A stretch of DNA of 64,000 nt from an uncultured delta proteobacterium (GTDB taxonomy: Bacteria > Desulfobacterota > Binatia > UBA9968): NCBI GenBank assembly GCA_963745835.1, contig CAVUZH010000016.1, positions 416,001 to 480,000 of the forward strand. The letters run 5' to 3'. Positions within the stretch are counted from its first letter, which is position 1. Each line of letters begins with the position of its first letter. The position numbers and the translations under genes are program-made. Positions 4,815 through 30,103 of the stretch are shown here, piece by piece. The notes under the pieces are model-generated. The model was not told where the DNA came from and did no database searches. It was given only the letters and a program-made list of their open reading frames with translations.

Positions 4815-5009
4815 AGAGTTCACATGATTGCGGTTCAAAGTACGTCAGCTCCAGCTTGTGAAAGACCCTATTTTCTTAACTTGATGTGGCCTAAACTTCC
4901 AGCCCCCTCGTGACCCTATCAAAGTATTTCGGTCTATAGAAATGGACGGCAAAAATCATCGCCAAACATACACCACCCTAAGGTTCCCACCGCGACGTGA
5001 TTCATGCCT

Positions 5010-6849: not shown

Positions 6850-6862
6850 ACGACCTCATATC

Positions 6863-10411: not shown

Positions 10412-10420
10412 GACAGTCCC

Positions 10421-12663: not shown

Positions 12664-12684
12664 ACAAGTCTCCGTCCTTGAAGC

Positions 12685-13521: not shown

Positions 13522-13544
13522 GAAGGCATTCGGGAACCGTTCTT

Positions 13545-16253
13545 TCAAGCCACGGAATTTTGTAATTGGTATTTCTCTGCAATTCTTGGATAAATCCAAA
13601 GAACCAACGTGATCAACAAAAACAACCCGATGGCCGTCTTAGCTACTATGACGCTTGCCGTAAACGTTACGGGTTCAAATTTAAAAATGATGCGGCTTTG
13701 GCCAGTGCCGACTGTCGTCGCCATAAACTGAAAATTTGCCGGGATAATCGTGCCTTGTTTCCCGTTTATAAACACCCTCCAGCCCTCGTCATACGAATCG
13801 CCAAAAAAAAGCACCGCCGGTTTTTTGGTGATGATATTCAGCTCCACTCTACTCGGGGTCGCGTGGGTGGTTTGAACCATAACAGCTTTCTCTGGATACT
13901 CCGACGAATCGATAGCTGGCTCATCTCGTAAAACAATCGTTGTCAGTGGATTGAACTCGACCGCTTTCAATCGCGCGAGAGCTGCGGTCTCGTTTTCGAT
14001 CGCCTCAAAATGAGTGAAAAGCATAAACCTGGATAGTGCGTTGGGGCGGATCGACACCTCGCCGGCTTTACCAACGTCGTATCGTGCACCAACGAGATCT
14101 AAAAAACGTGGGTCTTCAATGGTATGAGCGATGGAAGACGCTAAGGCCTGATCCCCATAATCGAAATTACGGATGAAAGAAGTGTATTTTTTTGAAAACT
14201 GTGAATTGAGTCCGCCGTATAATCTCACTCCATAATAATTAGGAATATTCGTCTCAATTTCGTTGCCCGATAACCCAAGCACTAAATGCGGATGATTGAC
14301 GCGGTAATTTTCGAGGTCCAATGCTACTTTAGATTCTGCTCCAAGGATCTCGCCTGGAGTCGTCAGAGCCGGATAGAGCGACTTTCTCTTAAAAAATGGT
14401 TCCGTAACAATGCGGCTGTATATCTTATTAAAGGGCAATAAATCGCCAAGCGAAACGAGCAAAAGCACCAAAAGAAAATATTTCGTTTCAAGCTTTCGCG
14501 TCTTAAGAGACGAAAGTAAAATTACCAATAGAACACTAACTAAAACGAATCGGGCTGAGCCCATCACTACCAACAGAAACGATTCAGGCATGGATGGATG
14601 CTTACTGAACCCGGTAAACGGGATTATCAGCACACCCAAGAGTACGAGCAACGCAACTGCCGTCGCAATACCAGAGACATTTCTAAAACGAGAATTCATC
14701 ACAAAAAATAGAACTGTCAGAAGGAGAGTTGAAATGAAGGCAAGGCTGGTCAGCAAATACATTGCGCCCAATCGAAATACGTATGAAGATCCTTTCTCTT
14801 GAAGAAAATTCTTCACCTCCTGCGGCAGAATTAGATAATAGATTCCAGCAACACTCAATAAGATAAGTGCTGCAACTAGTCTCTTGAGCGGTGGTCTAAC
14901 CAAGGCATTTTCAAACAGCAAATACGAAACAAACAGCAAAACAAGGGTTATGACGCCGGCGAGCCTGACATTACCCAATATATGCGGGTAGACCTTTAGC
15001 CAAACGGAAACTACTCCTAGCAGAACCAAGCCGCAGACAAGAAGAAAAATAAGAATTTTTTCTGTGCTTACCGAAGTTGGATGTTCTTCAATATGTTTAG
15101 CTATGTAACCGACCATCAGGCACATCCCCATCGGCAGCAAGTAGAGTGAACCCAATGGATGGAGTAACGGAAAGAATCCGATATTGAATACGCCGGCTAT
15201 CGGTTGAACATTCATTAACCACAGCCAAATGGGTAAGAACATGAGCGTGAGGATTTTTATTGGTTTGTTTTTTCGTATCGCTATCAATGACCAGATGACA
15301 AGCGATATAGAAGCAGCTCCCATGTAGAAACTTGCAGCACCGTGAATGTGACCCTTAAAGCCTAAAGCTGCAAGAACAGGTTCAGATGAAGCGAAGTTGA
15401 CGCCGAGAGTTTCGGGGATAAACGTAAAATAATGAAGAAAAATAACGTCTTGAAAACCCAAGTTTGCGATACTGTCAAGCAGCCGGGTGCCATCCCTGAG
15501 AGCTTCGGCAAACGGTAAAAGGCGTACGGCACCAATCGACGCACTAATCATCACTGCCAATGCAAAAACTCCCCAATACTTTGCCTGGCAGACGATTGCC
15601 GCAGGGTGAGTGAGCGTGAAGAACGCGTAGAGGAGCATGACGCTCAACATGATATATGCCACATAAACAATGTGGCCGGAGAGAAACATCGTTCCGATGC
15701 TAAGAGTCAACAAAGCGAAGGAAATGTAGAGTTTTCGCTGACCCATCGTGAACAGCAGGTATGTCGTGATCGTGGCAAGCAGCATGGTCGTCAGGGCGGG
15801 GTACAGTGTAGTCCCGAGGAACATAAGGCTACACAATTGATAGTTTAGTGACGAGAAAAAGGCCCATTTTCTGCTACCTAAGGCAGCAGTAAAAGCAAGA
15901 AAGCCAAACACACCGACGAGCCACATCTCAATGAAGATTCGAACAGTCAGTCCCAAGTGAAAGTACTGCTCCGGAAGCAGGAATAGGATCCAGTTGAACG
16001 GGGAATAGACGTAGTTATGCGTGCTGCCTGTAAAGTTAATTCCGCAGGCAATATAAGGGTTCCATAAACCGAGGTCCCCCTGAACTAAAGCTCGTAGAGA
16101 GAAGAAGTAGTTGGGCACGAGATGAAACTTATTATCACTACTGGCAATAAGCTTCATCCCCCTCAATAAAAAGGGCGAGAAGAAGAATGCGATTAGTGTC
16201 AGGTGTGCAACGATCACGAATCTCGTTTTAGACTCCGGTGATCGTACAAACAA
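13545..16253 (-). CDS. YfhO-family polytopic membrane protein (GT-C fold)
   Basis: LWNPYIACG near the N-terminus, many TM helices, C-terminal 'SYDEGWRVFING...ANFQFMA...F.FEP'. Confidence 0.85.
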   Translation of the reverse strand: MFVRSPESKTRFVIVAHLTLIAFFFSPFLLRGMKLIASSDNKFHLVPNYFFSLRALVQGDLGLWNPYIACGINFTGSTHNYVYSPFNWILFLLPEQYFHLGLTVRIFIEMWLVGVFGFLAFTAALGSRKWAFFSSLNYQLCSLMFLGTTLYPALTTMLLATITTYLLFTMGQRKLYISFALLTLSIGTMFLSGHIVYVAYIMLSVMLLYAFFTLTHPAAIVCQAKYWGVFALAVMISASIGAVRLLPFAEALRDGTRLLDSIANLGFQDVIFLHYFTFIPETLGVNFASSEPVLAALGFKGHIHGAASFYMGAASISLVIWSLIAIRKNKPIKILTLMFLPIWLWLMNVQPIAGVFNIGFFPLLHPLGSLYLLPMGMCLMVGYIAKHIEEHPTSVSTEKILIFLLVCGLVLLGVVSVWLKVYPHILGNVRLAGVITLVLLFVSYLLFENALVRPPLKRLVAALILLSVAGIYYLILPQEVKNFLQEKGSSYVFRLGAMYLLTSLAFISTLLLTVLFFVMNSRFRNVSGIATAVALLVLLGVLIIPFTGFSKHPSMPESFLLVVMGSARFVLVSVLLVILLSSLKTRKLETKYFLLVLLLVSLGDLLPFNKIYSRIVTEPFFKRKSLYPALTTPGEILGAESKVALDLENYRVNHPHLVLGLSGNEIETNIPNYYGVRLYGGLNSQFSKKYTSFIRNFDYGDQALASSIAHTIEDPRFLDLVGARYDVGKAGEVSIRPNALSRFMLFTHFEAIENETAALARLKAVEFNPLTTIVLRDEPAIDSSEYPEKAVMVQTTHATPSRVELNIITKKPAVLFFGDSYDEGWRVFINGKQGTIIPANFQFMATTVGTGQSRIIFKFEPVTFTASVIVAKTAIGLFLLITLVLWIYPRIAEKYQLQNSVA

Positions 16254-16486
16254 TTGCCTGGCACAAACGGTTGAAACGCATTTTATTGGACATGGATCGT
16301 ACTAACAAGATAACACTGTGATTCGGAATCCGTAGGATTAAACTAAATGATTGCTCGCCGCCATTGCGTTGGTTGCTCCATAAACTCGACAATGAAACGA
16401 CGATTCGGCCAGCTAGCCAACAAATGTTAAGGACTTCAGGACAATCAAAGGGATTCTACAGAGCAGAAAATCGGATCTGATGTTGC

Positions 16487-16589
16487 GTCTAAAATAATGA
16501 TGATACGCACATTCTCTTTTCACCCGCGGCATGATCGCCTTCATGCCCTCGACTTCATTCAGCGCTAAAACTAGCAGAGTCACTTTCAC
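16487..16589 (-). pseudogene. 5' remnant of a GT2 gene paralogous to 4026-4814
   Basis: GTG overlapping the NUDIX stop encodes VKVTLLVLALNEVEGMKAIMPRVKRE, versus KVTLLVLTLNEIDGMKAIMPRVKKE in the intact gene; then frameshift and loss of similarity. Confidence 0.85.
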
Positions 16590-17221
16590 ACTGGACCGTC
16601 CAGAGCCTGGTTCTCAAATCGACTGTACATAAAGAATGCTATAACTGTTGATGGGTCCTGGACCTCAGAACGGAGTATCATTTCTTCGACTTCTTGAATA
16701 TTGAAAAACCGGAGTTCTCGGTGCCCGATTTCCGCGGGCGCATACTCCCGTTCCTTTACACACTCGGTCGCCGCAAACAGCTGCACTCTGGCCGCCAAAA
16801 TTCCCCCATCCGGAGTGATAAAGCCCAACGATCGAATTGCTTCGGATTTGCAATCGAGTCCTGTCTCTTCCTTTAGTTCTCGACCCGCTGCGCTCGCAGA
16901 CACCTCTTGCCGATCGATAAAACCTCGCGGAATCTCCCATGAGTATTGTCCAATGGGATGACGGTAAATACGGATTAGGCCGATTTTGCCGTCAACGATC
17001 GGCAGAACCGCCACTCCGGTGACGAGATTAGAGGCGACACGTTTTGGCGCAACCACCAGATAATCTCTGATGGTCATGCGGCCTTGTGAAGTCAGTTCGT
17101 CAAAGAAGATATTAAACTGGCTGTTCTCGCAGACAAGTTTTCGCTTTTTTTGCTCCGGCTGCTGAGGTTTCGCACCCATCGAATCAGCAGATCGTCGCTT
17201 TCGCACAGAATCGCGTCGCAC
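16586..17221 (-). CDS. NUDIX hydrolase (NDP-sugar pyrophosphatase-like)
   Basis: WEIPRG...AAGRELKEETG Nudix box; start could be 17179. Confidence 0.88.
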   Translation of the reverse strand: MRRDSVRKRRSADSMGAKPQQPEQKKRKLVCENSQFNIFFDELTSQGRMTIRDYLVVAPKRVASNLVTGVAVLPIVDGKIGLIRIYRHPIGQYSWEIPRGFIDRQEVSASAAGRELKEETGLDCKSEAIRSLGFITPDGGILAARVQLFAATECVKEREYAPAEIGHRELRFFNIQEVEEMILRSEVQDPSTVIAFFMYSRFENQALDGPV

Positions 17222-17232
17222 GCACTAAGGGT

Positions 17233-18747
17233 TCAGGCTGCAGCCAAGATTCTTCTGACTAATCGTTGTGACGCCATTTCGCGGATGTGCTCAGCCGTAA
17301 GCGAACCGTATTTTGCCTCGATCATCCGCAAATACTGTGGACTGCTGAAATACCGGTGAAAAGCCTCATCACGAAACTTCAGCACGGCCGCGCCTGATAG
17401 GTACTTCGTGGGCAAGGGCAAGGTGTCGATGGCATGCTGCGAATAGCCGGACCACTTCTCCGGGAGCGGCCAACTTTCTCTCATCGCCAGGTTGTATAAC
17501 TGGGATCCAGGATAGGCCATGGCAGAATAGAAGTTCGCGAATTCACAGTTGAGTTCGAGAGCTAAATTAAGCGTCGACTCCATGCTCTCCAGATCATCTT
17601 CCGGAAGACCAAAAATATAGTTGGCGATCACGTTAACATCGGCTGCTCTCACGTTCTCCAAAGTGCGAAAGATCACCTCCTGATCGAATCCTTTATCCAC
17701 GTCATCACGCACCCGATCGCTAGCCGCCTCGATGCCAAACGCCAGCCAGTTGAAGCCTGCGCGTTTGAGCTTTTCCAGCATCCCGTCCTTGACCGTGTCG
17801 ACGCGCGCGTAAGCCCAGATATTCAGGTCGTAACCGCGTTCGATAATCGCATCGCATATCCCAAGTATGTGACGTGAATTCAGGACGAACATCTCGTCGG
17901 CTATCTTAATATTACGAATGCCATACTGGTTGACAAGTTTATCGATCTGGGCGATCACCGCCTGCGCGCTCCAGAAGCGATAGCTATTGACGCTTTCCTT
18001 CCATCCCGCTTCCTTTTCTCCGGTCTTAAACGGCGCTTGAATACAGCAGAAACTGCAATGAAAAGGACAGCCGAAGGTTGTGTAGAACGAGGCATAGGGC
18101 TCTCGTTGAAGATCTCCGAAGCAGTGCCAGTTGTGCGCTCGGTACTTGTCCATAGGCAAAAGATCCCATGCGAGTTCCGGGATTTCGTCATCTAGATTTT
18201 TGACCAGTGGAGCTGCGGGTGTGGAGATGACAACGCCGTCTTTCCAATAACAGATTCCCCGCACCTTCGAATAGTCCGGTGATGTAGATTTTGCCGCCTG
18301 CAACAAATCGACGAGAGTATAGGGTCCTTCTCCGGTGCACACGAAATCCGCCGCTTCCTCCCGCAACGTACGCTCCGGAAGCGCCGCGACATGTCCGCCC
18401 ACCAGCGCTAATTTGCGATTCGGATTGAGTTCTTTAAGCGCATCGCAGATCAAGCCGGAGACCGTCATGTTTTGGGTAGAGGCCGATGGTTGATGGCCAT
18501 AAACGACAATCACCGCCAATCGAGGATCCATGTCCTCGATCCGCGTCGCGGTTTCTTCGGGTGTTAGATTCTCCGCTTCCGCATCTACGATTTGAACCGA
18601 GAAACCGTGTTTACGAACAAACGTTGCCAACAAGCTTGCCCATACCGGAGGCTCGATGGCCGCCAGCTTCGATCCCAAAGATTGATAAACCTGCATGCGG
18701 GTTCCGGGGTGAACCAGTACCAGGTCCAATTGGCCATTACGAGACAT
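17233..18747 (-). CDS. Cobalamin-binding radical SAM enzyme
   Basis: N-terminal B12-binding domain (GGHVAALP, TGEG); GCPFHCSFC; FGIEA; YIFGLP. Confidence 0.92.
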   Translation of the reverse strand: MSRNGQLDLVLVHPGTRMQVYQSLGSKLAAIEPPVWASLLATFVRKHGFSVQIVDAEAENLTPEETATRIEDMDPRLAVIVVYGHQPSASTQNMTVSGLICDALKELNPNRKLALVGGHVAALPERTLREEAADFVCTGEGPYTLVDLLQAAKSTSPDYSKVRGICYWKDGVVISTPAAPLVKNLDDEIPELAWDLLPMDKYRAHNWHCFGDLQREPYASFYTTFGCPFHCSFCCIQAPFKTGEKEAGWKESVNSYRFWSAQAVIAQIDKLVNQYGIRNIKIADEMFVLNSRHILGICDAIIERGYDLNIWAYARVDTVKDGMLEKLKRAGFNWLAFGIEAASDRVRDDVDKGFDQEVIFRTLENVRAADVNVIANYIFGLPEDDLESMESTLNLALELNCEFANFYSAMAYPGSQLYNLAMRESWPLPEKWSGYSQHAIDTLPLPTKYLSGAAVLKFRDEAFHRYFSSPQYLRMIEAKYGSLTAEHIREMASQRLVRRILAAA

Positions 18748-19948
18748 AACGTTCGCCCTCACCGGAGACGCTGTTCAGGAGAGAACATAACTGAAGGATT
18801 TTTTCTCGCTCGAGATCCGGATAATTACCTATGTAGAAGCCGTAGAAATGAACATGATCGACGTTTGGATACTTTTCAAACTCGCGCTCGCCCATTATTC
18901 TTCTTAGATAAGGCTGCCTCAATTGATTTCCGCCGCCCGAGGTGCCGCGGCGGAATTCTACGTTGTAGCGCCGCATCATTTGCATCACGTTTTCACATAA
19001 CACCGGATCAGCGCGATTGAGCACCAACGTGAACGCATAATTGCAGCTTCCCGCCGTGACAAAATCGGTCTGGTACTTCTCAGGGTCTAGATGATCGAGA
19101 AACAAGTCTAAATTCTCCGATCTGATCCTGTTGTTGGCATCGAGCCGCTTGAGTTGAGAACGGCCAATGACAGCGTTGATTTCCGTGCTTCGAACATTGT
19201 ATGCCGGGAATGCGAATATGAAGTCGGGGTTCAGATCCGGGTAGTTTCGATAGAAACTCTCCTTAAGCTCGGGCGAACTCGACTCTCGTACCATGCCATG
19301 GGAACGAAGCATGCGCAGCGTTTCATATAGATCAGAATCGTTGGTGCAAATCATACCACCCTCGATGGTGCTCATATGATGCGCATAGTAGAAGGAAAAG
19401 TTGGACATCAGCCCGAAAGTTCCTAGCTTTTGCCCCCCGCAGGTCGCTCCATGTGATTCACAAACATCTTCGATAAGCGGAATACCTCGACCTTTAAGCT
19501 CGGCTAGAACCGACTTTTGCAAAGCATTGAAACCTAACACGTGAGTCATGAATACGGCTCTGGTGTTGGGCGAAATTTTTTCGAGGATCTGTTGGTTATC
19601 CATTCCAAGCGTGCGACGATCGATGTCGACGAATACGGGTTTAAACCCGGACTGGATGACCGAAGCAATATCGGACACCCAAGTCAATGGTGGCACGATT
19701 ATTTCTCCCGAGCCATAGCGCTCTTTTAGCGCGCACATAGTTAAGAGATTCGCCGAGGAACCGGAATTTACAAAGACGCTGTATTTGACACCCAGCCAAG
19801 CCGACCACTCTTTTTCAAACTCCTTGACGTGATCAGATTGCGTCAAGATCGGGTCCTGCTGATGCAGCAGCTCGACAACCCTGGCGAAATCCTCCTTAGC
19901 CAGATTGTTCTTCATTAATGGCCAAGCGAGATTTTGGATAGTATTCAT
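18737..19948 (-). CDS. PLP-dependent DegT-family enzyme, ColD-type NDP-4-keto-sugar 3-dehydratase
   Basis: FVNSGSSANL, IEDVCESHGA; FSFYYAHHMSTIEGG has His at the Schiff-base Lys position. Confidence 0.82.
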   Translation of the reverse strand: MNTIQNLAWPLMKNNLAKEDFARVVELLHQQDPILTQSDHVKEFEKEWSAWLGVKYSVFVNSGSSANLLTMCALKERYGSGEIIVPPLTWVSDIASVIQSGFKPVFVDIDRRTLGMDNQQILEKISPNTRAVFMTHVLGFNALQKSVLAELKGRGIPLIEDVCESHGATCGGQKLGTFGLMSNFSFYYAHHMSTIEGGMICTNDSDLYETLRMLRSHGMVRESSSPELKESFYRNYPDLNPDFIFAFPAYNVRSTEINAVIGRSQLKRLDANNRIRSENLDLFLDHLDPEKYQTDFVTAGSCNYAFTLVLNRADPVLCENVMQMMRRYNVEFRRGTSGGGNQLRQPYLRRIMGEREFEKYPNVDHVHFYGFYIGNYPDLEREKILQLCSLLNSVSGEGERYVS

Positions 19949-19955
19949 GGTTCGA

Positions 19956-21002
19956 CTAAAATGGCCCGCGAAATTCGAACTCCGCAAGGTCTTTCCGTTC
20001 CTGCGGCAACCAAGCGTTTTTGCCTCCTTTGACCAGATCATAGGCGGTCGATGCGATGGTGCGTGCGTTTGGATAATAGAGCTCCTCCAGAACCGGAGTC
20101 GGCGGGCAGGTCACCGGCGCATATCCTAGACGTTGGACAGCCACTTGCCTGTCGTGTTGCAGCCTTTCTATTACCTGGCTGACTATTTCCGCGCCAGCAC
20201 CGCAGATTGTCCATCCATTGTCGACGACACACAGACGGCCGGTTTTTCGCGCGGATTTTACGATCGTGTCGATGTCAAGCGGGCTAAGCCAGACGGGATC
20301 GATCACTTCCGCATCGATGCCGGTTGATGCAAGGTAATCACGCGCTCTCAGACATTCCAATACCATGTACGAAATTCCGACAAGTGTAATATCTTGGCCT
20401 TGCGCTAAAACGCGGGCTTTGCCAGCTGGAACGGCGTATTCGGATTCAGGAACCACGCCTTTTTGGAAATGGAGAATCCGATGCTCAACATAGATGACCG
20501 GATCACCATCGCGGATCGCCTGGATCAAGCATCCCTTTGCATCATAAGGATTGGCCGGCGCAACCACTTTCAGGCCGGGAATGTGCATGAAGAGCGAGTG
20601 TAATCCCTGGGAATGCTGAGCGCCCTGCCCCCAACTCTTCCCGATCATGCAGCGAACAACCATCGGGACATGAACTTGACCGCCGTACATGTAGCGACTC
20701 TTGGCCGCGATGTTCACCAATTGATTCATCGCCAACAGCATGAAATCCATGCGGATGTGAACGTGAATCGGCCGCAGTCCCGCTAAAGCCATTCCAATGG
20801 CGACTCCGGTCATGGCGTCCTCGGAAAGTGGAGTTCCGAAGACACGTTGCGGGCCATATTTTTCAAGCAGCCCGCGCGTGGTTCCTTGGATTGCCTTGGG
20901 ATCGTCGACATCGAGACCAAAAATCACCACTGATCCGTCTCGCGCCATCTCCTGATCCGTAGCTTCGCGAATCGCGTCGATATACGACAGAGTGCGTTCC
21001 AT
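19956..21002 (-). CDS. ThDP-dependent 2-oxoacid dehydrogenase E1 beta-like subunit
   Basis: TPLSE, GAQHSQ, IPGLKVVAP, KTGRL. Confidence 0.9.
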   Translation of the reverse strand: MERTLSYIDAIREATDQEMARDGSVVIFGLDVDDPKAIQGTTRGLLEKYGPQRVFGTPLSEDAMTGVAIGMALAGLRPIHVHIRMDFMLLAMNQLVNIAAKSRYMYGGQVHVPMVVRCMIGKSWGQGAQHSQGLHSLFMHIPGLKVVAPANPYDAKGCLIQAIRDGDPVIYVEHRILHFQKGVVPESEYAVPAGKARVLAQGQDITLVGISYMVLECLRARDYLASTGIDAEVIDPVWLSPLDIDTIVKSARKTGRLCVVDNGWTICGAGAEIVSQVIERLQHDRQVAVQRLGYAPVTCPPTPVLEELYYPNARTIASTAYDLVKGGKNAWLPQERKDLAEFEFRGPF

Positions 21003-21941
21003 TTAGTCGCCGATCACATCCATATATAACTCTTCCGGTTGTGGATACGGGCTTTCCTCCGCAAAGCGGATGGCCGCACTGATTTCCTCTTCCACTTCGG
21101 TTTTCAACCGGCTGCAAGCTTCCGCTGACAGAAGGCATTCTATCCGCGGCAACGCGTCGCGTTCGAGCCACGGGCTCGCTTCTTGCCGGCTCCGGTAACC
21201 CAAATCAAAATCTTCGTTCGGGCCGACGTGTTCTTTCCAACGATATGTAAGGCATTCAAAAAAATACGGCCCACTCCGGCCTGCGCGCATGAGGTCCGCC
21301 GCGGCATTAATCCGGTTATAAAGCCGCTGCGTATCGCCATCGCCGATCTGCTCCGCTACGATGCCATGGGCTTTGGCCTTGTCGCACGGGTTCGGAGCCT
21401 TCTGACGACGCGATATATGAGTATGGATGGCGTAGAAATTATTCTCGCAGACAAAAATCACCGGGAGCTCCTTCAGGGCGGCGAAATTAAGGCTCTCGTG
21501 AAAAACCCCCTCCTCGGTCGCTCCATCGCCAAAAAAACTCACGACGACATTTTTTCTCTTCTGTAGTTTCATGGCGTACGCATAACCGACCGCATTAGGG
21601 ATAGTCGTTCCGACGACTGCCGAGGCTCCCATGACACCGTGAGCGACATCAACGAGGTGCATCGACCCACCCTTTCCTTTCGCGCACCCTGTAGCCTTGC
21701 CGTAAAGCTCAGCGAACATTTTTTTTAAGTCACCGCCTTTAGCCAAATAGTACGCGTGACTTCGATAACTGCCAAAGACGGTGTCGTCGGACCGCAGAGC
21801 CTCGCACACCCCCACGGCTATCCACTCCTGACCGATTGAGAGATGCACGGGACTTTTGATCTTATCGGTGGGATAAATCCGGGCAATCTCTTCCTCCACC
21901 CGGCGGATCCGATATAGAGATCTAAAAATACGTTCGTTCAT
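21003..21941 (-). CDS. ThDP-dependent E1 alpha-like subunit
   Basis: HLSIGQE, YRSH, GKGGSMH, GDGA...ENN ThDP motif, TYRWKEHVG. Confidence 0.9.
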   Translation of the reverse strand: MNERIFRSLYRIRRVEEEIARIYPTDKIKSPVHLSIGQEWIAVGVCEALRSDDTVFGSYRSHAYYLAKGGDLKKMFAELYGKATGCAKGKGGSMHLVDVAHGVMGASAVVGTTIPNAVGYAYAMKLQKRKNVVVSFFGDGATEEGVFHESLNFAALKELPVIFVCENNFYAIHTHISRRQKAPNPCDKAKAHGIVAEQIGDGDTQRLYNRINAAADLMRAGRSGPYFFECLTYRWKEHVGPNEDFDLGYRSRQEASPWLERDALPRIECLLSAEACSRLKTEVEEEISAAIRFAEESPYPQPEELYMDVIGD

Positions 21942-21945
21942 GAGG

Positions 21946-22882
21946 TTATATATTCCTGTGACAAGTCTCGAGGTACCACTGGTAGGTTTTTTCCAGACCT
22001 AAACGCAGTGATATCTTTGGCTGCCATCCAAGAGCGAAAAGCTCGCTGGAATCCAGCGACTTCAACGGCATACCGTCCGGCTTCTTCGGGTCAAAGCGTA
22101 GCTCTCCGGAGTACCCGACTACTTCTTTAATCAGTTCGGCAATCTCCCTGATTGACGCGTCTGAGCCGCTTCCCAGATTGATCGGCACTGAGCTGCTATA
22201 ATGGTTCATCAAGAAAATGGCTGCATCAGCGACGTCGGCGACATAAATAAATTCCCGGCGCGGCGAACCCGATCCCCAGACTTCGACATTATCCGCTTGG
22301 GAAAGCTTTGCCTGATGCATTTTGCACCATCAAGGCGGCAATCACATGCGAGTCCTCGACGCCAAAGTCGTCGCCTGGTCCAAAGACATTGGCGGGAATG
22401 GCGCTGATCATATCGATGCCATGTTGCTGCCGATATGCTTGACTCAATTTGATCCCGGCAAGCTTAGCGGTCGCATAAGCCTCGTTAGTAGACTCCAGAA
22501 CTCCCGTCATCAAAGACGAAACCTGCATGGGTTGCAAGCAAGCTCGCGGATAGCAGCAGGAGCTGCCCATATAAAGCAATTTCTTAACGCCGCAACGACA
22601 CGCACTGTCGATGACATGGCAATCCACAAGCAAATTATTCAGCATCAGATCCGCCGGGAGTTTTTGATTAGCGCCGATGCCGCCCGACTTGCCGCCTACA
22701 GCAAAAACATATTCAGGCACAGTCCGTAAGAAAAAAGCTTCGACCTCTCGGGCATCGATTAACGAAGGTTTTCCAGGATCGCCGAGAAGATTCTCATAGC
22801 CGTCCGCTCTCAACCGTGTTCTGATGGCCTCTCCGATGAGTCCATGGTCGTCCGCAATAAAGATTCTCGCGTCCTTCTCCAT
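21946..22882 (-). CDS. fcl: GDP-L-fucose synthase / GDP-4-keto-sugar epimerase-reductase family; split by a 1-nt frameshift near 22325
   Basis: ORF 22289-22882 (GGIGAN, GSSCCYP, YATAK, SHVIAAL) plus ORF 21946-22320 (WGSGSPRREF, KPDG) form one Fcl. Confidence 0.85.
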
Positions 22883-22930
22883 TTATAAGCGAATAGAAAT
22901 CGAGGGTGCCAAGCTGTAGGGCTGGTCCGT

Positions 22931-24004
22931 CTACAAATCTCTGTCCAATCGGTCATTCAGTTCGCCGACAAAATCGTATTCCCGTGAATCGCGAATTTTT
23001 TCTTCGGCCGAGTAATCCTTTTCGTGATCGTAGAAAATGATTTGACTCCCAGAGAAATCAAAATGAAACGGGACCGATATAAACTTTTTGAGCGCCTCTT
23101 TAACTTGATTGTGTTTGCCCGGAGGCACAAACAGGAGCATAAAACCTCCGCCGCCGGCGCCCAGCAACTTTCCCCCGAGAGCGCCGTTCGCGATGGCGTG
23201 CGCATAGAGCTCATCGACGTAGCTGTTTGAAACTCTCGCGCTCAGGCTGCGCTTGGCTTGCCATCCCTCGTCGAGGAGAGTGCCAAAAGCAGTTATATCC
23301 CGCCCATTATTTAGAACTGCGAGGCTTTCTTCGACCAGACCTTTCATGATGCGCAATTGGCTTCTTTTTCCGTCGACATCGGCAACGTAACTGCCGGCAA
23401 CATCCGAGGCGGTGCGCTCTATGCCTGTATAGAAAAGCATTAGATGAGAGCTTAACTCGCGCAGGCGATCCCCTGATAACGTAATCGGTTTGACGGTGAT
23501 TTCACCGTCTTGGGAAAAAACCACATGATTGAATCCGCCAAATGCCGCCAAAACCTGATCCTGCGAACCGACGGTTTCCTTGATCATCTCCTGTTCGATC
23601 TGAATGCTTTCCGCCGCCAGTTGTCGCTTGGTCGGCATCTGTCCCTTGAGAGCGTACAAGGCGTGCAACAAACCCACCGTAAAGGCAGAACTTGAGCCCA
23701 TGCCGCTCCGAGCCGGAAGGTCACCATCGTGGTGAATCTCCACGCCTCGATCAATTTTTAAGTAACGCAGCACTTCACGCACGGCGGGATGAGCGATTTC
23801 ATCGACGATTTGGCAGTTCTCAATCTGCGAATAGACAACGCGAATCCTATGTTTAAAAAACGGCGGAAGGTAACGGCAGGTGAGATAGCAGTATTTGTCG
23901 ATGGTTGCGCCCAGCACCGTGCCGCCGTGGTCGCGGTACCATGCAGGGTAATCGGTGCCACCACCAAAGAAAGAAATACGAAATGGCGTCCTGCTAATGA
24001 TCAT
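22931..24004 (-). CDS. hddA: D-glycero-D-manno-heptose 7-phosphate kinase
   Basis: TPFRISFFGGGTD, PARSGMGSSS, GSQDQ, GAGGGGF. Confidence 0.9.
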   Translation of the reverse strand: MIISRTPFRISFFGGGTDYPAWYRDHGGTVLGATIDKYCYLTCRYLPPFFKHRIRVVYSQIENCQIVDEIAHPAVREVLRYLKIDRGVEIHHDGDLPARSGMGSSSAFTVGLLHALYALKGQMPTKRQLAAESIQIEQEMIKETVGSQDQVLAAFGGFNHVVFSQDGEITVKPITLSGDRLRELSSHLMLFYTGIERTASDVAGSYVADVDGKRSQLRIMKGLVEESLAVLNNGRDITAFGTLLDEGWQAKRSLSARVSNSYVDELYAHAIANGALGGKLLGAGGGGFMLLFVPPGKHNQVKEALKKFISVPFHFDFSGSQIIFYDHEKDYSAEEKIRDSREYDFVGELNDRLDRDL

Positions 24005-24564
24005 TGATCACGCACCTTTCTAAAGATCCTGTCGATGACTTCCACGGCTGCGGGCAGATCATCGACGATGTAATCCGGCGCAACCTTCTGCTCAGAAGCT
24101 ACTTGAGCCCCATAGCCCGTGCGTACCAGCATCGTCATAGCTCCAACCCGGCAACCCATCTCGATATCGCTCAACTTGTCACCAATAACAATGCTGCCTG
24201 ACAAATCAAAGTTCAAATCGTCCGATGCCTTTTGGATTAATCCAGGGCGCGGTTTACGGCAGAAACATTGGTCTTGAGGAGTATGCGGGCAAAAATAGAG
24301 ACCATCGAGAGTTATCTCTTCAGCACGCAGCATCTCTAAAAACCTGTCATGAATCCGCGTCAACTGCGCTTCATCAAAATATCCCCGTCCGACCGCCGAT
24401 TGATTGGTAATGACAACCAGCCCGAGGCCCATGGCACCGAGATCCCGGAGCGCCTTGCCTGCCCCGGGAATCAGCGCAATCTGTTTCGGATCCGACAGGT
24501 AAGACACCTCTTCGATGATCGTGCCATCCCTATCGAGTACTACAAACCGCCGTTTCACGTTCAT
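24001..24564 (-). CDS. gmhB: Heptose 1,7-bisphosphate phosphatase
   Basis: LDRDGT, ITNQS, CPH...CFCRKP, IGDKLSD. Confidence 0.9.
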   Translation of the reverse strand: MNVKRRFVVLDRDGTIIEEVSYLSDPKQIALIPGAGKALRDLGAMGLGLVVITNQSAVGRGYFDEAQLTRIHDRFLEMLRAEEITLDGLYFCPHTPQDQCFCRKPRPGLIQKASDDLNFDLSGSIVIGDKLSDIEMGCRVGAMTMLVRTGYGAQVASEQKVAPDYIVDDLPAAVEVIDRIFRKVRDQ

Positions 24565-25282
24565 TGATCGCCGCAAAAAATTGTTCGGCGGCAGCAAAAT
24601 CCTCCGGCGTGCCGATATCGAGAAAACGTCCCCGCTCCTGATAACCATAAAGCCCGTGGTTCATCAGGGTGGGGAAAATGTCATGTTCCAGTGAAACAAC
24701 GGTATCTTCGGCGATCGAGCGGATAACCCGACGGCTAAGCAAATACACGCCGGCGTTAATCGACCCTGAACCGCCTTGTTTTTTTTCGACAAATTGGGTC
24801 ACAGTCCCGTCAGAATCAATCTTTACCGAGCCGTAACGCTCTGTGTTCGGCACCTCGGCCAACAACATCGTCGCTTGGGAACCGCGGTTACAATGCCAAG
24901 CCCACAAGCTGGTCAAATCCGTCGCGCAGAATGAGTCTCCGTTCATGACCAGAACAGGATCGGACAGAAGATAGGGCGAAGCCAATCGTAGAGCGCCGCC
25001 CGTGCCTAGAGGCCGCGTTTCGCGCGAATATGAAATCTGCAATTTTCGATATCTTTTTCCGAATGTTTGCTCGATCTGTTCTCCCATATGTCCGGTACAT
25101 AACACAACTCTAGAAGATCCTGCATTTGATAACTGGTCCAGCAAGTATGTCAAAAAAGGCCGCCCATGAATCTCCGCCAGTGCTTTTGGCCGGTCCGAGA
25201 CCACTGGAAGCAACCGTGTTCCTAATCCACCTGCGAGCACTGCCACGCTGAGATCTGAAAAAGCGTTGACGTCCTGCCCCAC
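24530..25282 (-). CDS. hddC: Heptose-1-phosphate guanylyltransferase
   Basis: LAGGLGTRL...PKAL, LGTGGA, MNGDS, FLDIGTPED. Confidence 0.85.
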   Translation of the reverse strand: MGQDVNAFSDLSVAVLAGGLGTRLLPVVSDRPKALAEIHGRPFLTYLLDQLSNAGSSRVVLCTGHMGEQIEQTFGKRYRKLQISYSRETRPLGTGGALRLASPYLLSDPVLVMNGDSFCATDLTSLWAWHCNRGSQATMLLAEVPNTERYGSVKIDSDGTVTQFVEKKQGGSGSINAGVYLLSRRVIRSIAEDTVVSLEHDIFPTLMNHGLYGYQERGRFLDIGTPEDFAAAEQFFAAINERETAVCSTR

Positions 25283-25309
25283 TACGATTTCTCTTCGCCC
25301 TGAACAAAA

Positions 25310-26248
25310 CTAAATATTCGCGAACTCAGCCCGGCCCATCATGCGATATCCCTTCAGTAACTCCTGGATACCTGAGTCCAATGAGCGTTTGGCTTCGAAG
25401 CCAGCATCTCGCAGGCGTTGGTTGGAAACGATGTAATTGCGTTTATCCGGATCGGTTCCGACCTGGCCGAAGTGAATGTAAAAATTAGGCACGTATTCTT
25501 TTATCTTCAATGCCAGCGCTTCTTTGGAAAGGTTGGCGCTATCGAGTCCAGCATTATAGGGTCGACCCGCCATTTTCTTGCCGTTTTCTATGCAATGAAT
25601 GAAGCAATCCGCCACATCGCGTATATGGATGTAATTCCGTTTGAAATCTTTTTCGAAGATAACAATATAGCCGTCCGTGACGGCGGCATAGACAAAGTGA
25701 TTGACTAGCAGATCAAGACGCATGCGAGGCGACATGCCAAAAACCGTTGCAAGGCGCAGCGTAACCGTATTGGTCCTTTCCAGGATCTCCGCTTCAGCCT
25801 CGGTCTTTGTTTGGCCATAAAGCGAAATCGGCTCGAGCGGAGTGTCCTCGGTACAGAAGACATCTCCCGATTTGGTGCCATAGCCGCTGTTTGTGGTTGG
25901 ATAAACGATCAACTGATCGTTGCTGCGTAGACGCGCAAGCAGTCTGATAGCTTCAAGATTGACCGACCGAGCCAACCAGGGATCACGATCGCATGCCGGC
26001 GCGCCGACTATGGCCGCAAGAGGAATCAGCACGTCCGCATCTTTGACCAGACGACGTATAAGACCTTCGTCGCGAACGTCTCCGACGACGAAGTCAAACC
26101 GCGGATTGGCGCAGAGATGAAACAGGGTTCGTTGCCGATAGGTGAGGCTATCGGCTGCGGTAACGTGAAACCCGGCCGCGAGCAAATGCTCGCACAAAAC
26201 AGATCCTAGATATCCGGCGGCGCCGGTTACAACGACGTGGACTGGCAT
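25310..26248 (-). CDS. GDP-D-glycero-D-manno-heptose 4-dehydrogenase-like extended SDR (Cj1427/WcaG-like)
   Basis: IPLAAIVGAPAC, YPTTNSGYG, RLATVFGMSPRMRLDLLVN, DPDKRNY and C-terminal FAN match the recalled Cj1427 motifs. Confidence 0.8.
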   Translation of the reverse strand: MPVHVVVTGAAGYLGSVLCEHLLAAGFHVTAADSLTYRQRTLFHLCANPRFDFVVGDVRDEGLIRRLVKDADVLIPLAAIVGAPACDRDPWLARSVNLEAIRLLARLRSNDQLIVYPTTNSGYGTKSGDVFCTEDTPLEPISLYGQTKTEAEAEILERTNTVTLRLATVFGMSPRMRLDLLVNHFVYAAVTDGYIVIFEKDFKRNYIHIRDVADCFIHCIENGKKMAGRPYNAGLDSANLSKEALALKIKEYVPNFYIHFGQVGTDPDKRNYIVSNQRLRDAGFEAKRSLDSGIQELLKGYRMMGRAEFANI

Positions 26249-26458
26249 TGGTGCTTGAAAGTTCCTTTGATTCGCAAATTACGGAGCCGCGTCATCTTAC
26301 TACCACATTAGAGTCATGTATTGAAACGGTTAGCGGACTTTTTTATGTCGCGAAAGTGACCCATTTAGTCTGAATGCCTTGAAGGAACGATTTTTCGGGT
26401 GTTAGTTCGCGGGAACAGGCGACCCCTGTCAAAACCGAGGGAACGTTCCCATTGCGGC

Positions 26459-28778
26459 TCACTTGAGTGAACTCTGCTCGGAGCCACCTAGGCCGAGCAA
26501 GCTCACAGCGAAGTTGAAAGTAGTCTTGGCAGGATTGATGTCGCGGTGTACGCCCACCGTTAAAGTCCAACACTCGCAGCGAGAGAGAAGCTTGGCGGCG
26601 GCTCGGACGTTTAAGAAGCGGTTTTCTCGCGCATCGTATGTCGTATTGACGTTAGTTAACAGGTGTTCAGTTAAATGATAGAGACCTCCCAAGACCAAAT
26701 TGCCAACGGTGGTCTTGTTCACAACTGATGGGCAAGCGGGATCGAATGGATTATCGACGCAGTCAATGTTGGCGTTCTCGGCCAAGAAGCCATTAACCCC
26801 CCTGCTCAGGTAATGGTAACCGATGCTGATTGAGTTAGGGCGGTTGAAATCTGCGTCCAAATAGAGACGCGTCGGCGGTCGAGGATCGCTAAACGTAACA
26901 TTCGCACGCGCTTGAGTTATCTCCCAGGGTCCGGGGTCAAATCCGCCATCAAAAGTAAAGCTGAGATAATTTGACGGGGTGAGATACAGGTTTATATCCA
27001 AGTCGGAGAGGGTATCACCGCCTTTTCGCTCTTTGTCGATGTCATACGTTAACGCAAATCTCAAAGATCCCATATTGCGCACATCTCCGCCGAGACCGAC
27101 ATTAAACGGTTCGACCCGTTGATCAGCGTCGAGAACTGTCAGGGGACTGATAGGTTTGCCTAAGAAGCGATTCGTTACGCCGAAGGTAACAACGTTCCTG
27201 CGGCGAACTCGATCGATGTCGTCCATGATTGGAATTCGACTCTGGTCCGTACCAGGAACAAACAGATAACTCAACTCAGGCTCAACCACATGCTTGATTC
27301 TGCTGAGTCCTAAGCCGCTCCATGGAAACACCCGACCAAGCGATGTGCCGATATTGCCGCGGATTTCAACAAGCTCACGGGACACGTTGTGGTCGGAAGA
27401 CTGGACCGTTTCATAGAGATGGTATAGCGTCTGGCGCGGCGCAACCGAGAAGGAACCAAACAGGGACGACATTCGCAGCGGCAGCAGAAGTTCCGGCCGA
27501 AGATCCAAACGCATGCCATCGCCGCCTTGTCTCCGGATGTAATTGACGCCTTCTGCTCGCCAGCGCATTTCCAACGGAAAATCTTCCAAGCCTTTTCTTC
27601 CCCAAAAAGAAATTTGTGGCGTTCGATGCAAAGTCGTCGCATCCGGCTGGACGAAATCCTGATAGAAATTCCATTCGCCTTGTAGATGAGTGTCTCCCCA
27701 GCTCCTGAAAACCCCGAATCTAGAAGTGGCATACCGGCTGCTTCGGATGTCGCCTTGCGCCGTCGGCGAAAGGTCGAAGCGTTCCACCAACTCTCTTGTA
27801 AATAGATCGTCTCCGTAAGCGGCAATGTCGCTATAGGTCAGCCAGTTTGAAGCGAAGTCATGCCGATGCGTTCCCATGACTCCCCAGCGATCAATAGGGA
27901 TCTCCGGGTCCGCGATAGTCGAATCGGCAATGGACCGCTGGTCGCGCAGTCGTTCGTTGAAATAACTGGTTTGTAAGAGGAAATCGGAGTCACGATCAAA
28001 GAGCGTGCGGAATTCGTTCAAAAAACCGTAGCGCGCCTCGCTCTGATAATCGAACGCCAATGTGGTATCGGTGCTTTTGGAGATAGCCCAGAAGAAAGGC
28101 TGCTGAAAACGGAAACCTTCTTCCGTCGAAGTGCCGAATTTTGGGAACAGGAAACCGGTTTGCCGCTCGGTTTTCAACGGGAAGAACCCGTAAGGGAGGT
28201 AAAAAACCGGGATGTCATAGATATAGAAATAGCCGTTTCTTGATCGTTCCCAGGCCACCCGCTGTGAGGTCGAGTTGTTCGGCCGAAAACCTCCATGGGG
28301 CCGGACCCGATTCGCACAGGCAGGTGGTAAAGAAGCCTTCATCAACGTGATAGGTCTGGCCGCCCAACTTCTGAAATCGGCGGCCGCTTATGCTGATGTG
28401 CCCTTGTTCAATAAACAGGTCGGCGTTGGTAATTTCGCCGGTTTCGTTGCCCAGGTTTAGCCGTATGGACTCTGCGGAATTTATTTTCCATTCGGGATCG
28501 TCCAGCGAAATCTTTCCTGTCGCCTCAATGTCTTGAGTGGTCCGGTTTACATTAATTTGCTCGGCCTTAAGTGTGGTTCCTTGGCGCTCGATCTCGACGT
28601 TGCCGCTGGCTTCGATCTGAGCGCCGCTTTCGCTGACCGTCAACTTGTCAGCCGTCATGTTGATTTGATCGTCCGAGCCGCTACCTCGCTGGGTTGTTTG
28701 TGCCTGCCCATAACCTGCGCCTGCGGACAAACACCACAGGGCGAAAATATTGATGAGAAGAATTTTTCTTGGCTTCAT
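26459..28778 (-). CDS. lptD: LPS-assembly protein LptD; 1-nt frameshift near 28237
   Basis: Signal peptide plus OstA-like N-terminus (ADKL, GNVEI, FTTC...PW); downstream PVFYLPY...RQTGFLFP beta-barrel. Confidence 0.9.
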
Positions 28779-28798
28779 TTTCTACGGCCGGGGAGAAC

Positions 28799-30103
28799 TC
28801 AGTTGAAGTTACTGTGCCCAGATTGTCTTGTCTGCGCCATGGTTGTGAGCAGAGGGCGTACTTCGCCAAGCAGGTAAAGCGATCCTGTGATGACGATCAC
28901 TTCATTGGGTGCGGCGCCTTGGACGAGAGATTCGACAGCTAAACGGGGATCCGGAATAACTTGAGACTGCAGTTTGCCAGCCACTTGCTGTTGCAACTGA
29001 ACCGGGTCAGCGCTCCTTTCCAGTTGACTGACTCGAGTAAAAACGATCTCGTCCACGACTCCTGCCAGAGTGTCGAGCATGAATCGCCAGTCTTTATCCT
29101 CCATGACGGCAAACAACACTCTTATTCGTCGGCCACCCCGCAACTGGCGAAGTTCATCGATTAGAACGTCAATGCCTTCCCTATTATGCGCGCCATCAAT
29201 GATCACGGTCGGATCCGTTAAGATCACTTCCATCCGTCCAGGCCATGATACATTTTGCAAACCAGAACGTATTGCTACCTCGCTGGCGGGGAATCGATCG
29301 TCAACGACCTCCAGCGCCGCAGTGGCAACACCGGCGTTACGAATTTGATGCGCGCCGCGCAGCGCCACTGTGAGATCCGGCAAATTCCATTTCGCACTCT
29401 TATAGTCGAAAGCGCCGTTGCTTTTCAACTTTAAAGTGAAGTTTTGTCCCAATCGGTAGCTTGCAGCTTGGTTCTTATGAGCTATCTCCTCGATTACCTC
29501 CGTAGCTTCCGGCGGCAGAGAGCCACAGACGACCGGAACCCCTTTCTTGATGATGCCGGCCTTCTCCCGCGCGATGGAAGCTATATCAGAGCCGAGAAAA
29601 GCTTCATGGTCTTTAGAGATAGTCGTGATAACGGATACGATTGAGTGAACTAGATTAGTGGCATCGAATCGACCGCCAAGCCCCACTTCGATCACTGCCA
29701 GGTCAATCTGTCGGCGGGCAAAATATACCAATGCCATCACCGTTACGATTTCAAAAAACGTCAAGAGAATATTAGTCGCCTCTGTTCGGCGCCAAATTTC
29801 GTTGGCGAGCGCGACAACTTCATCCGGCGTAATTTCTTCGTCGCCAATGCGCATACGTTCGGTGAAGGAGACCAAATGCGGAGAGGTATACAGCGCGGTG
29901 CGATAACCGGCGCAGCAGAGGATTCGATGCAGCATCGCGGCAGTCGATCCTTTACCGTTGGTGCCGGCAATGTGAACAGAAGGAAATGTTTTCTCCGGAT
30001 GATCAAACAGCGCCAGCGCCCGTTCCATCCGCTCCAGGCGCAAATCGATAATGCCGCCGCGCAGGTTATAAATTCGATTCAGAGTTTCTAGGTAGGCATC
30101 CAT
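28799..30103 (-). CDS. folC: Folylpolyglutamate synthase / dihydrofolate synthase
   Basis: HIAGTNGKGS, YTSPHL, EVGLGGRFDATN, DGAHN. Confidence 0.97.
   Translation of the reverse strand: MDAYLETLNRIYNLRGGIIDLRLERMERALALFDHPEKTFPSVHIAGTNGKGSTAAMLHRILCCAGYRTALYTSPHLVSFTERMRIGDEEITPDEVVALANEIWRRTEATNILLTFFEIVTVMALVYFARRQIDLAVIEVGLGGRFDATNLVHSIVSVITTISKDHEAFLGSDIASIAREKAGIIKKGVPVVCGSLPPEATEVIEEIAHKNQAASYRLGQNFTLKLKSNGAFDYKSAKWNLPDLTVALRGAHQIRNAGVATAALEVVDDRFPASEVAIRSGLQNVSWPGRMEVILTDPTVIIDGAHNREGIDVLIDELRQLRGGRRIRVLFAVMEDKDWRFMLDTLAGVVDEIVFTRVSQLERSADPVQLQQQVAGKLQSQVIPDPRLAVESLVQGAAPNEVIVITGSLYLLGEVRPLLTTMAQTRQSGHSNFN

Follow-up and report, generated by a model that had tools for sequence, protein, structure and literature searches.

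We analysed a 64,000-nucleotide stretch of contig CAVUZH010000016.1 from an uncultured delta proteobacterium (hereafter called the window), in which ten head-to-tail genes on the minus strand, running from 26248 to 16586, form a tightly packed operon. This operon is probably a cassette that makes a GDP-linked, 3-deoxy heptose derivative with a carbon branch at C4 and at least nine carbons in total, which would be formed from a heptose phosphate and used in envelope glycans. An earlier note on this DNA had carried the pathway further, to a carbocyclic sugar of the caryose type. That proposal holds up to the 3-deoxy GDP-heptose derivative branched by a thiamine diphosphate (ThDP)-dependent enzyme, while sequence and fold comparisons lend no support to the carbocyclic end product and do not exclude it either. 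The pathway would unite five chemistries not previously described together, namely GDP-heptose activation, Cj1427-type oxidation, ColD-type deoxygenation, ThDP-dependent carboligation to a ketone, and a cobalamin-dependent radical step, and our literature search found no description of such a pathway.

All genes that had been named for this operon are present at 16586–26248. They are transcribed from the end that encodes a Cj1427-like short-chain dehydrogenase/reductase (SDR), followed by an HddC-like guanylyltransferase, a GmhB-like phosphatase, an HddA-like kinase, an Fcl/ColC-like epimerase/reductase, the alpha and beta subunits of a ThDP-dependent E1 enzyme, a ColD-type dehydrase, a cobalamin-dependent radical S-adenosylmethionine (rSAM) enzyme, and a NUDIX protein. 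The ten genes correspond to eleven called open reading frames (ORFs), which were called from the first start codon and are separated by 0–48 nt or overlap. Scans of positions 16000–26700 for promoters (7 sites, against 9.0 ± 2.8 expected) and terminators (10 sites, against 11.0 ± 3.9 expected) were uninformative.

The gene set recurs in a wide range of bacteria. We scanned one genome per species for relatives of the rSAM enzyme, which is the family-defining protein, and obtained 434 loci, of which the best 80, with 61–98% identity, were kept. The rSAM of one of them, a Candidatus Binatia metagenome-assembled genome (MAG; L001), is 98% identical to that of the window, which marks the window as Binatia-like. 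These best 80 loci represent at least ten phyla-level groups and include Binatia, delta-proteobacterial MAGs, Omnitrophota, cyanobacteria, Poribacteria, Nitrospirae, Chloroflexota, Acidobacteriota, Planctomycetota, Verrucomicrobiota, Ignavibacteria, Myxococcales, and one Flavobacteriales MAG. Burkholderia, Trinickia, and other Burkholderiales are not among them, although the scan patterns may miss a homologue of about 50% identity. A protein search with the rSAM of Azospirillum named Azospirillum, Ferrovibrio, Arenibaculum, Magnetospirillum, and unclassified Alphaproteobacteria among the 120 matches listed.

Gene content was counted by tblastn with the window proteins in the 51 loci that extend at least 8.5 kb upstream of the rSAM gene. 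The recurring order is SDR, HddC, (GmhB, SIS), HddA, Fcl, E1 alpha, E1 beta, ColD, rSAM, with identities that are typically 50–78%. The ColD-like gene was found in 48 of these loci, E1 alpha and E1 beta in 47 each, HddA in 42 (41 of them with at least 55% identity), Fcl in 40, the SDR in 31 (45–94% identity), HddC in 25, and GmhB in 11. Among the best 80 loci, ColD lies directly upstream of rSAM in 56. This arrangement is far beyond chance. The NUDIX gene (16586–17221), listed in the earlier note as part of the operon, is indeed there, but it is not a conserved cassette member: it occurs in 2 of the 51 loci and, outside them, in the loci of Azospirillum and Solidesulfovibrio magneticus. Its product resembles pyrophosphatases of nucleoside diphosphate sugars (best PDB match 2yvm, followed by ADP-ribose and ADP-sugar pyrophosphatases) and is best regarded as a putative lineage-specific accessory. 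Eight loci (L008, L009, L013, L023, L025, L027, L034, and L035), referred to as type-2, keep an rSAM 63–70% and a kinase 55–60% identical to those of the window, whereas their SDR, E1, Fcl, HddC, and DegT proteins are only 28–53% identical. Azospirillum lipoferum 4B carries all cassette parts on plasmid AZO_p6, scattered over about 40 kb. The view that the Azospirillum rSAM occurs without E1 or ColD was withdrawn, as the same plasmid carries SDR, E1 alpha/beta, and DegT genes at a distance of about 20 kb.

The first two modifications of the heptose can be assigned from close relatives of characterised enzymes. The SDR (25310–26248; Pfam Epimerase) matches PDB entry 6vo6 over residues 4–311 of its 312 residues (E = 1.3e-104, 353 bits), and the next solved chain follows only at E = 1.9e-19. 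We take 6vo6 to be Cj1427, although the deposit carries the generic title "putative sugar-nucleotide epimerase/dehydratase". This full-length match supports the C4 oxidation claimed previously: judging from homology and published enzymology, the SDR would act as a GDP-heptose C4 dehydrogenase with alpha-ketoglutarate as electron sink. The DegT-family enzyme (18737–20041) is nearest to ColD/WbdK (2gms, E = 1.5e-53), with the CDP-hexose E1 dehydrase more distant (about 1e-30). In a residue-level alignment, its FSFYYAHH motif pairs with FSSFYSHH of ColD, so that a histidine occupies the position of the Schiff-base lysine of aminotransferases. The histidine is present in 67 of the 74 motif-spanning DegT-family matches in the fetched loci, including all 54 close orthologues, as well as in three Azospirillum copies and the S. 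magneticus copy. The seven matches with lysine are separate, more distant copies in those loci (25–35% identity).

The ColD-type enzyme, presumably dependent on pyridoxamine phosphate (PMP), would thus remove the 3-hydroxyl group, as the earlier note had also claimed, and give GDP-3-deoxy-4-keto-heptose. This compound is likely an intermediate of the cassette pathway, because Cj1427 and a C3-dehydratase together yield it in vitro (PMC10680097; this and the other papers are cited for their accessible parts). As a separate observation, the S. magneticus RS-1 plasmid pDMC1 (L084) carries a gene for L-2-hydroxyglutarate oxidase (28447–29649) in the same locus as a Cj1427-like SDR. Cj1427-type enzymes form L-2-hydroxyglutarate from alpha-ketoglutarate (PMC10680097), a by-product that the oxidase would recycle, which fits the alpha-ketoglutarate cofactor cycle.

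The strongest evidence for branching of the keto sugar comes from the ThDP step, where three enzyme types swap at one position of the cassette. In the window, this step is represented by E1 alpha (21003–21941; E1_dh, alpha-ketoacid dehydrogenase-2 type), which scores 286.7 bits with the pyruvate dehydrogenase (PDH) E1 alpha model, under its cut-off, and matches PDH E1 alpha in the PDB with E = 2.8e-41, and by its partner E1 beta (19956–21002; Transket_pyr and Transketolase_C), which matches PDH E1 beta with E = 1.2e-64. As had been noted, the pair stands alone: a Pfam scan of 62 window ORFs found no member of the E2 or E3 families. Four of the 51 loci lack E1, and in two of these, another ThDP enzyme occupies the slot between Fcl and ColD. 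This is a split transketolase in L016 and a 610-aa single-chain enzyme in L033, whose best solved relative is 8rph (E = 1.2e-99). The latter structure is JanthE, a YerE-like enzyme that makes tertiary alcohols from 2-keto acids and ketones (PMC12188165). The remaining two E1-less loci (L019 and L061) have unrelated genes upstream, which in L061 form a restriction-modification island. A split transketolase is also encoded next to rSAM on a plasmid of Azospirillum argentinense Az39.

The three types that interchange at this slot are the same three ThDP superfamilies that are named in the accessible part of PMC12247030 as taking ketone acceptors to form branched sugars: YerE-like decarboxylases, split transketolases, and two-subunit enzymes of the alpha-ketoacid dehydrogenase-2 type. 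For the two-subunit type, KbDH-alpha/beta was active in vitro with pyruvate (PMC12247030), and additional cases of E1-type branching, known from genetics or proposed, are Plm8/Plm9 and EvdU5/EvdS3. The positional evidence supports the view that the E1 pair is functionally equivalent to the branching enzymes of the YerE and transketolase types. Together with the E1-type precedents, these displacements support the earlier proposal that a C2 unit is added to a keto sugar. The E1 pair would decarboxylate a 2-keto acid, probably pyruvate, and add the acyl anion equivalent to the C4 ketone, leading to a tertiary alcohol with an acetyl branch.

For the supply of GDP-heptose, the proposed HddA/GmhB/HddC route is in line with best or near-best model matches, all below their curated cut-offs. 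The guanylyltransferase (24530–25282; NTP_transferase) scores 182.6 bits with the mannose-1-phosphate guanylyltransferase model and 143.4 bits with the HddC model (cut-off 300), both below cut-off. The putative heptose-1,7-bisphosphate 7-phosphatase (24001–24648; HAD-IIIA), the true start of which probably lies downstream of the first start codon, reaches 171.9 bits with the GmhB model NF006506 (cut-off 178). For the GHMP kinase (22931–24004; GHMP_kinases_N and GHMP_kinases_C), a candidate heptose-7-phosphate 1-kinase, HddA is the best model, with 147.4 bits (cut-off 600).

The Fcl/ColC-like gene (21946–22882), claimed as an epimerase/reductase gene of the operon, is present, but not as a single ORF. 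Its two ORFs, 22289–22882 and 21946–22320, match positions 2–186 and 186–305 of the GDP-fucose synthase profile, and comparison with L005 and L002 locates a 1-bp insertion near 22324–22325. The gene of L005 is a single ORF of 311 aa, and the encoded protein matches E. coli GDP-fucose synthetase 1e6u with E = 3.3e-78. It retains the aligned Ser, Cys, Tyr, Lys, and His residues, which we take to be catalytic. The enzyme would catalyse C5 epimerisation, reduction of a ketone, or both on the GDP-4-keto sugar. Its N-terminal glycine motif (22850–22882) is irregular: instead of the GHRGMVG of E. coli GDP-fucose synthetase, the window group shows DDHGLIG and the majority of type-1 loci GGxTLIG, while the type-2 and Azospirillum copies keep GHxGxxG. 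The cofactor use of the Fcl-like enzyme may differ. Three other genes in the window, trpC (32925–33705), a gene of the phospholipase D (PLD)/cardiolipin synthase type (42912–44368), and lptD (26459–28778), are likewise each divided into two overlapping or abutting ORFs that match successive parts of a profile. Because these genes are split too, assembly indels are as likely an explanation for the Fcl split as a true pseudogene.

Several of these findings weigh against the proposed cassette function. The matches to HddA, HddC, and GmhB are all under the curated NCBIfam cut-offs; gmhA has no place in the operon, a SIS gene lies 10 kb off in a neighbouring insert (6253–6849), and 7 of the 51 relatives have a SIS gene inside the locus. 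The literature search returned no glycan structure from any carrier of the cassette. The Fcl-like gene is frameshifted in the window, and if it were a true pseudogene, the pathway would be inactive in this genome. We consider this doubtful, since the splits in trpC, the PLD-type gene, and lptD point to assembly indels and the remaining cassette genes are intact and 91–98% identical to those of L001 and L005. It is also uncertain in which order the Fcl and E1 steps take place and what their role is, because reduction of C4 by the Fcl-like enzyme would remove the E1 acceptor. Moreover, chain extension could take the place of C4 branching, because aldehydes, too, serve as acceptors for ThDP E1 and DXS-like enzymes. 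The E1 pair could thus act like DXS on an aldehyde such as an oxidised C7 and produce a linear 9-deoxy-nonulose. The weak similarity of E1 alpha and E1 beta to DXS and transketolase and the match of the beta-like subunit of the split enzyme in L016 to DXS models are in line with this idea. It is nevertheless very unlikely, as there is no evident enzyme for C7 oxidation, unless it is the rSAM, the adjoining C4 oxidase and 3-dehydrase produce the very acceptor on which YerE acts, and the E1 pair is replaced in L033 by a YerE-like, ketone-accepting enzyme. A further point against the cassette as a single pathway is the frequent position of rSAM beside the kinase. Because of this position and its conservation in the type-2 loci, rSAM may act on an earlier, common intermediate. 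The rSAM and GHMP kinase would then be a separate early module that modifies heptose or heptose phosphate before the keto-sugar chemistry and independently of the ThDP branch. In addition to the unequal conservation in the eight type-2 loci, this is suggested by the position of rSAM next to the kinase or one gene away in these loci and in A. lipoferum, A. ramasamyi, A. argentinense, and S. magneticus. Furthermore, an A. thermophilum plasmid with NUDIX, E1 alpha/beta, DegT, SDR, and kinase genes is not among the plasmids listed for rSAM (40 of 43), a result that covers just this one plasmid. However, in the main arrangement, rSAM directly follows ColD and lies four genes from the kinase. The type-2 loci also retain the same enzyme families, so that neither the chemistry nor the substrate of the rSAM need differ there, and we regard an independent early module as improbable.

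The rSAM enzyme (17233–18762) would carry out a final radical step of the pathway. The protein contains a B12-binding domain (PF02310, 63.1 bits) and a Radical_SAM domain (PF04055, 62.7 bits), and its CxxxCxxC motif (C232, C236, and C239) is invariant in 25 sequences; by these sequence features, it is a class B member. It belongs to a tight family, with 7999 of 8000 scored candidates at E ≤ 1e-30 and the top 120 at 71–95% identity. Among curated models, it scores highest with HpnJ (162.6 bits) and BchE (152.3 bits), far under both cut-offs, and none of the models is matched above its cut-off. The closest sequences of solved structure are AprD4 (1.2e-12) and the glutamine methylase 9ccb (6.8e-12). 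An AlphaFold model with a mean pLDDT of 69.8 was compared with the PDB using Foldseek and matched CysS, 9ccb, OxsB, AprD4, TokK, and TsrM with TM-scores of 0.52–0.61. All top matches are class B members or AprD4, and their ranking does not discriminate between functions. The HpnJ and BchE matches were discounted as support for a cyclase: they carry little weight because an unrelated accessory rSAM in L033 has the same top two. Hidden Markov models, sequence, and fold therefore do not separate a methylase from a cyclase, and neither reaction is supported or excluded by them. For the final radical step, methyl transfer to an unactivated carbon appears somewhat less than evenly probable and ring closure through a C–C bond unlikely, with other chemistry making up the rest.

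A few further observations concern this enzyme family. The ESM Atlas returned only unnamed B12 rSAM clusters, and two of the three nearest are labelled mostly viral (Uroviricota), with a taxon given for few members; these labels may reflect mislabelled contigs or phage-borne copies. A second, distant B12 rSAM or cobalamin-dependent protein (22–26% identity) is encoded in L033 (4313–5812), L025 (at about 10928), L034 (at about 13301), and L086 (13132–14877), which suggests extra tailoring in some lineages. On AZO_p6 of A. lipoferum 4B (L085, 3745–6010), mtnA and a methylthioadenosine phosphorylase gene lie beside the DegT and E1 genes, and their products may salvage by-products of S-adenosylmethionine that arise from the rSAM.

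Two outcomes of the radical step deserve comparison. The rSAM may be a C-methyltransferase, in which case the product would be an uncyclised, methylated, yersiniose-like branched heptose of ten carbons, for example with an extended branch or a methylated C7, and the Fcl-like enzyme would reduce the branch ketone or C4. We hold this as a tentative possibility. It is consistent with the class B architecture, in which the B12-binding domain is combined with the invariant cluster motif, and with the structural neighbours CysS, glutamine methylase, TokK, and TsrM, which are methylases. Moreover, most characterised cobalamin-dependent rSAM enzymes are methylases (PMC12931638, accessible part), and in sugars of this kind, the branch ketone often undergoes later reduction or methylation (PMC12247030). 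On the other hand, no curated methylase model reaches its cut-off, the sequence points to no target carbon, and the structure model is of moderate confidence. Alternatively, as the earlier note had envisaged, the rSAM might take a hydrogen atom from C7 and join C7 to the branch carbonyl, giving a GDP-linked 4,8-cyclo-3,9-dideoxy-nonose, the caryose skeleton. Each structural feature of caryose can be assigned to an operon gene, and its vicinal tertiary alcohols at C4 and C8 would fit a route in which the branch ketone is attacked after an acyloin addition. From the systematic name, we deduce that the D-ido pattern of caryose (C2, C4, C5, and C6) differs from 3-deoxy-D-glycero-D-manno-heptose only at C5, a comparison for which we presume the usual Fischer conventions. 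C5 is the centre epimerised by an Fcl/ColC-type enzyme. HpnJ and BchE, the best models of the rSAM, are non-methylating enzymes. According to the accessible part of a 2022 review, it is unknown where caryose originates and how it is formed, and radical SAM enzymes have been proposed for other sugar carbocycles, namely calditol and the bacteriohopanetetrol (BHT) cyclitol ether (PMC9092360). Nonetheless, we judge a caryose-type product to be a long shot. The HpnJ and BchE scores are far below cut-off and recur for the unrelated rSAM of L033, the fold search ranks methylases, OxsB, and AprD4 equally, and methylation prevails among characterised members of the class (PMC12931638). The reductase half of the Fcl-like enzyme would be left without a role. 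Caryose is reported from one species only, whereas the cassette is found in hundreds, and Burkholderiales are absent from the best 80 of the 434 loci. Among the plasmid matches listed (40 of 43), the named features of Burkholderia, Caballeronia, and Mycetohabitans are hpnJ, with about 24% identity.

The proposed pathway to a C4-branched GDP-heptose derivative shares parts with several known systems. The GDP-heptose pathways of Campylobacter jejuni (Cj1427 and the HS:5 C3-dehydratase) have in common with the cassette the Cj1427-type SDR and a PMP-type 3-dehydrase, but end with cupin epimerases and C4 reductases and lack a ThDP enzyme and an rSAM. In addition, the pairing of Cj1427 with the dehydratase is apparently a laboratory mix of two serotypes (PMC10680097, accessible part), whereas in the cassette it is native. 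The yersiniose A pathway (YerE/YerF; also ErwE, MMAR_2332, and JanthE) likewise adds an acyl anion equivalent by means of ThDP to C4 of a 3-deoxy-4-keto nucleotide sugar and gives a tertiary alcohol for glycans of the lipopolysaccharide (LPS) type; a YerE-like enzyme fills the ThDP slot of L033. The yersiniose pathway differs in using a CDP-3,6-dideoxyhexose, a 4,6-dehydratase, and the single-chain YerE; the operon contains no 4,6-dehydratase and instead has GDP-heptose-type enzymes, a two-subunit E1, and an added cobalamin-dependent rSAM.

In actinomycetes, branching enzymes such as Plm8/Plm9, AviB1/B2, EvdU5/EvdS3, and KbDH-alpha/beta are also E1 pairs without E2 and E3 that stand beside a ketone-forming enzyme, with pyruvate as donor; this likeness is drawn from their description, not from sequence comparison. 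These enzymes act on dTDP- or NDP-linked hexoses or pentoses in antibiotic clusters, and the alpha-ketoacid dehydrogenase-2 branching superfamily is placed mainly in specialised metabolites in the accessible part of PMC12247030, whereas the cassette would serve envelope glycans in many phyla. The GDP-colitose pathway shares the ColD-type histidine enzyme and an Fcl-homologous epimerase/reductase, there named ColC, acting on a GDP-4-keto-3-deoxy sugar. It starts, however, from GDP-mannose via a 4,6-dehydratase, while the cassette would keep the 6-hydroxyl group and C7 and has two further enzymes that functionalise C–C or C–H bonds. The cobalamin-dependent rSAM enzymes HpnJ, BchE, OxsB, and the methylases of the GenK/Fom3 type have the same domain architecture, cluster motif, and fold as the window enzyme, which nevertheless forms its own tight family, with only 24–28% identity to annotated HpnJ and BchE and 13–17% to solved members. 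The predicted intermediates could formally give rise to the skeleton of caryose, a carbocyclic sugar in the LPS of Trinickia (Burkholderia) caryophylli, but the listed cassette carriers (best 80 of 434) include no Burkholderiales. A link to bradyrhizose was dropped, as its genes are unknown and the cluster implicated in its synthesis carries a dTDP-glucose 4,6-dehydratase.

Branched and higher-carbon sugars influence the recognition of bacterial surfaces, and few pathways to them are known. The cassette would carry two-subunit ThDP branching enzymes from antibiotic sugars into envelope glycans, and A. lipoferum 4B, A. argentinense Az39, and S. magneticus RS-1 are culturable, non-pathogenic carriers suitable for genetics. 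The cassette is also a concrete candidate for the origin of caryose, and if a caryose-type product were formed after all, the biosynthesis of caryose would be solved. Carbocyclic envelope sugars would then be common in Binatia, cyanobacteria, Planctomycetota, Chloroflexota, and Azospirillum rather than a curiosity of one carnation pathogen.

The genes that adjoin the cassette differ between loci. In the closest relatives (L001, L002, L003, and L005), the NUDIX gene is directly followed by a glycosyltransferase gene of family GT2, whose product resembles AglJ and dolichyl-phosphate hexose transferases. The copy in the window (4026–4838, minus strand) matches the AglJ and dolichyl-phosphate hexose transferase models and is a candidate polyprenyl-phosphate glycosyltransferase dedicated to the sugar. 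This GT2 is found in 15 of the 80 loci and also on S. magneticus pDMC1, where it has 61.5% identity and a GT-C glycosyltransferase gene downstream. Elsewhere, the neighbours are Wzm/Wzt exporters (L004 and L006), Wzx-type flippases (L015 and L048), GT-C proteins of the PMT_2 or YfhO type (L048 and L053), or flagellin and TPR-GT2 proteins (L028). Because it adjoins different assembly genes in different loci, the cassette is a portable donor-sugar module for varied glycan assembly systems. The product would be handed over to these systems, in the lineage of the window probably to the polyprenyl-phosphate GT2 and then to a GT-C. In L028, the flagellin gene (12586–13419) lies 8 kb downstream of rSAM, past a TPR-methyltransferase gene, one unassigned ORF, and two TPR-GT2 genes, and a TylF-like methyltransferase gene is located just upstream of rSAM. 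These neighbours suggest that one use of the sugar is the glycosylation of flagellin. TPR and GT41 proteins are encoded in the Azospirillum loci as well.

In the window, the NUDIX and GT2 genes are separated by an insert of about 11.7 kb (4839–16585) that is absent between them in L001, L002, L003, and L005. It encodes a YfhO-like GT-C of 902 aa, a GT2 resembling dolichyl-phosphate hexose transferases, an epimerase/dehydratase, a nucleotide-sugar dehydrogenase, an SDR, and a GFO/IDH/MocA oxidoreductase, together with a second sugar-activation set (GHMP kinase, nucleotidyltransferase, SIS isomerase, and HAD phosphatase) and a Staphylococcus-type transaldolase (326 bits, above cut-off). The activation set presumably resembles the LmbR/N/P/K/O route to GDP-octose. 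Finally, two sets of ORFs gave no Pfam match: a 431-aa ORF at 212–1507 of the window, beside methyltransferase and GT2 genes, which also had no NCBIfam match, and two ORFs of about 545 aa that lie between E1 beta and ColD in L017 (5318–8599).

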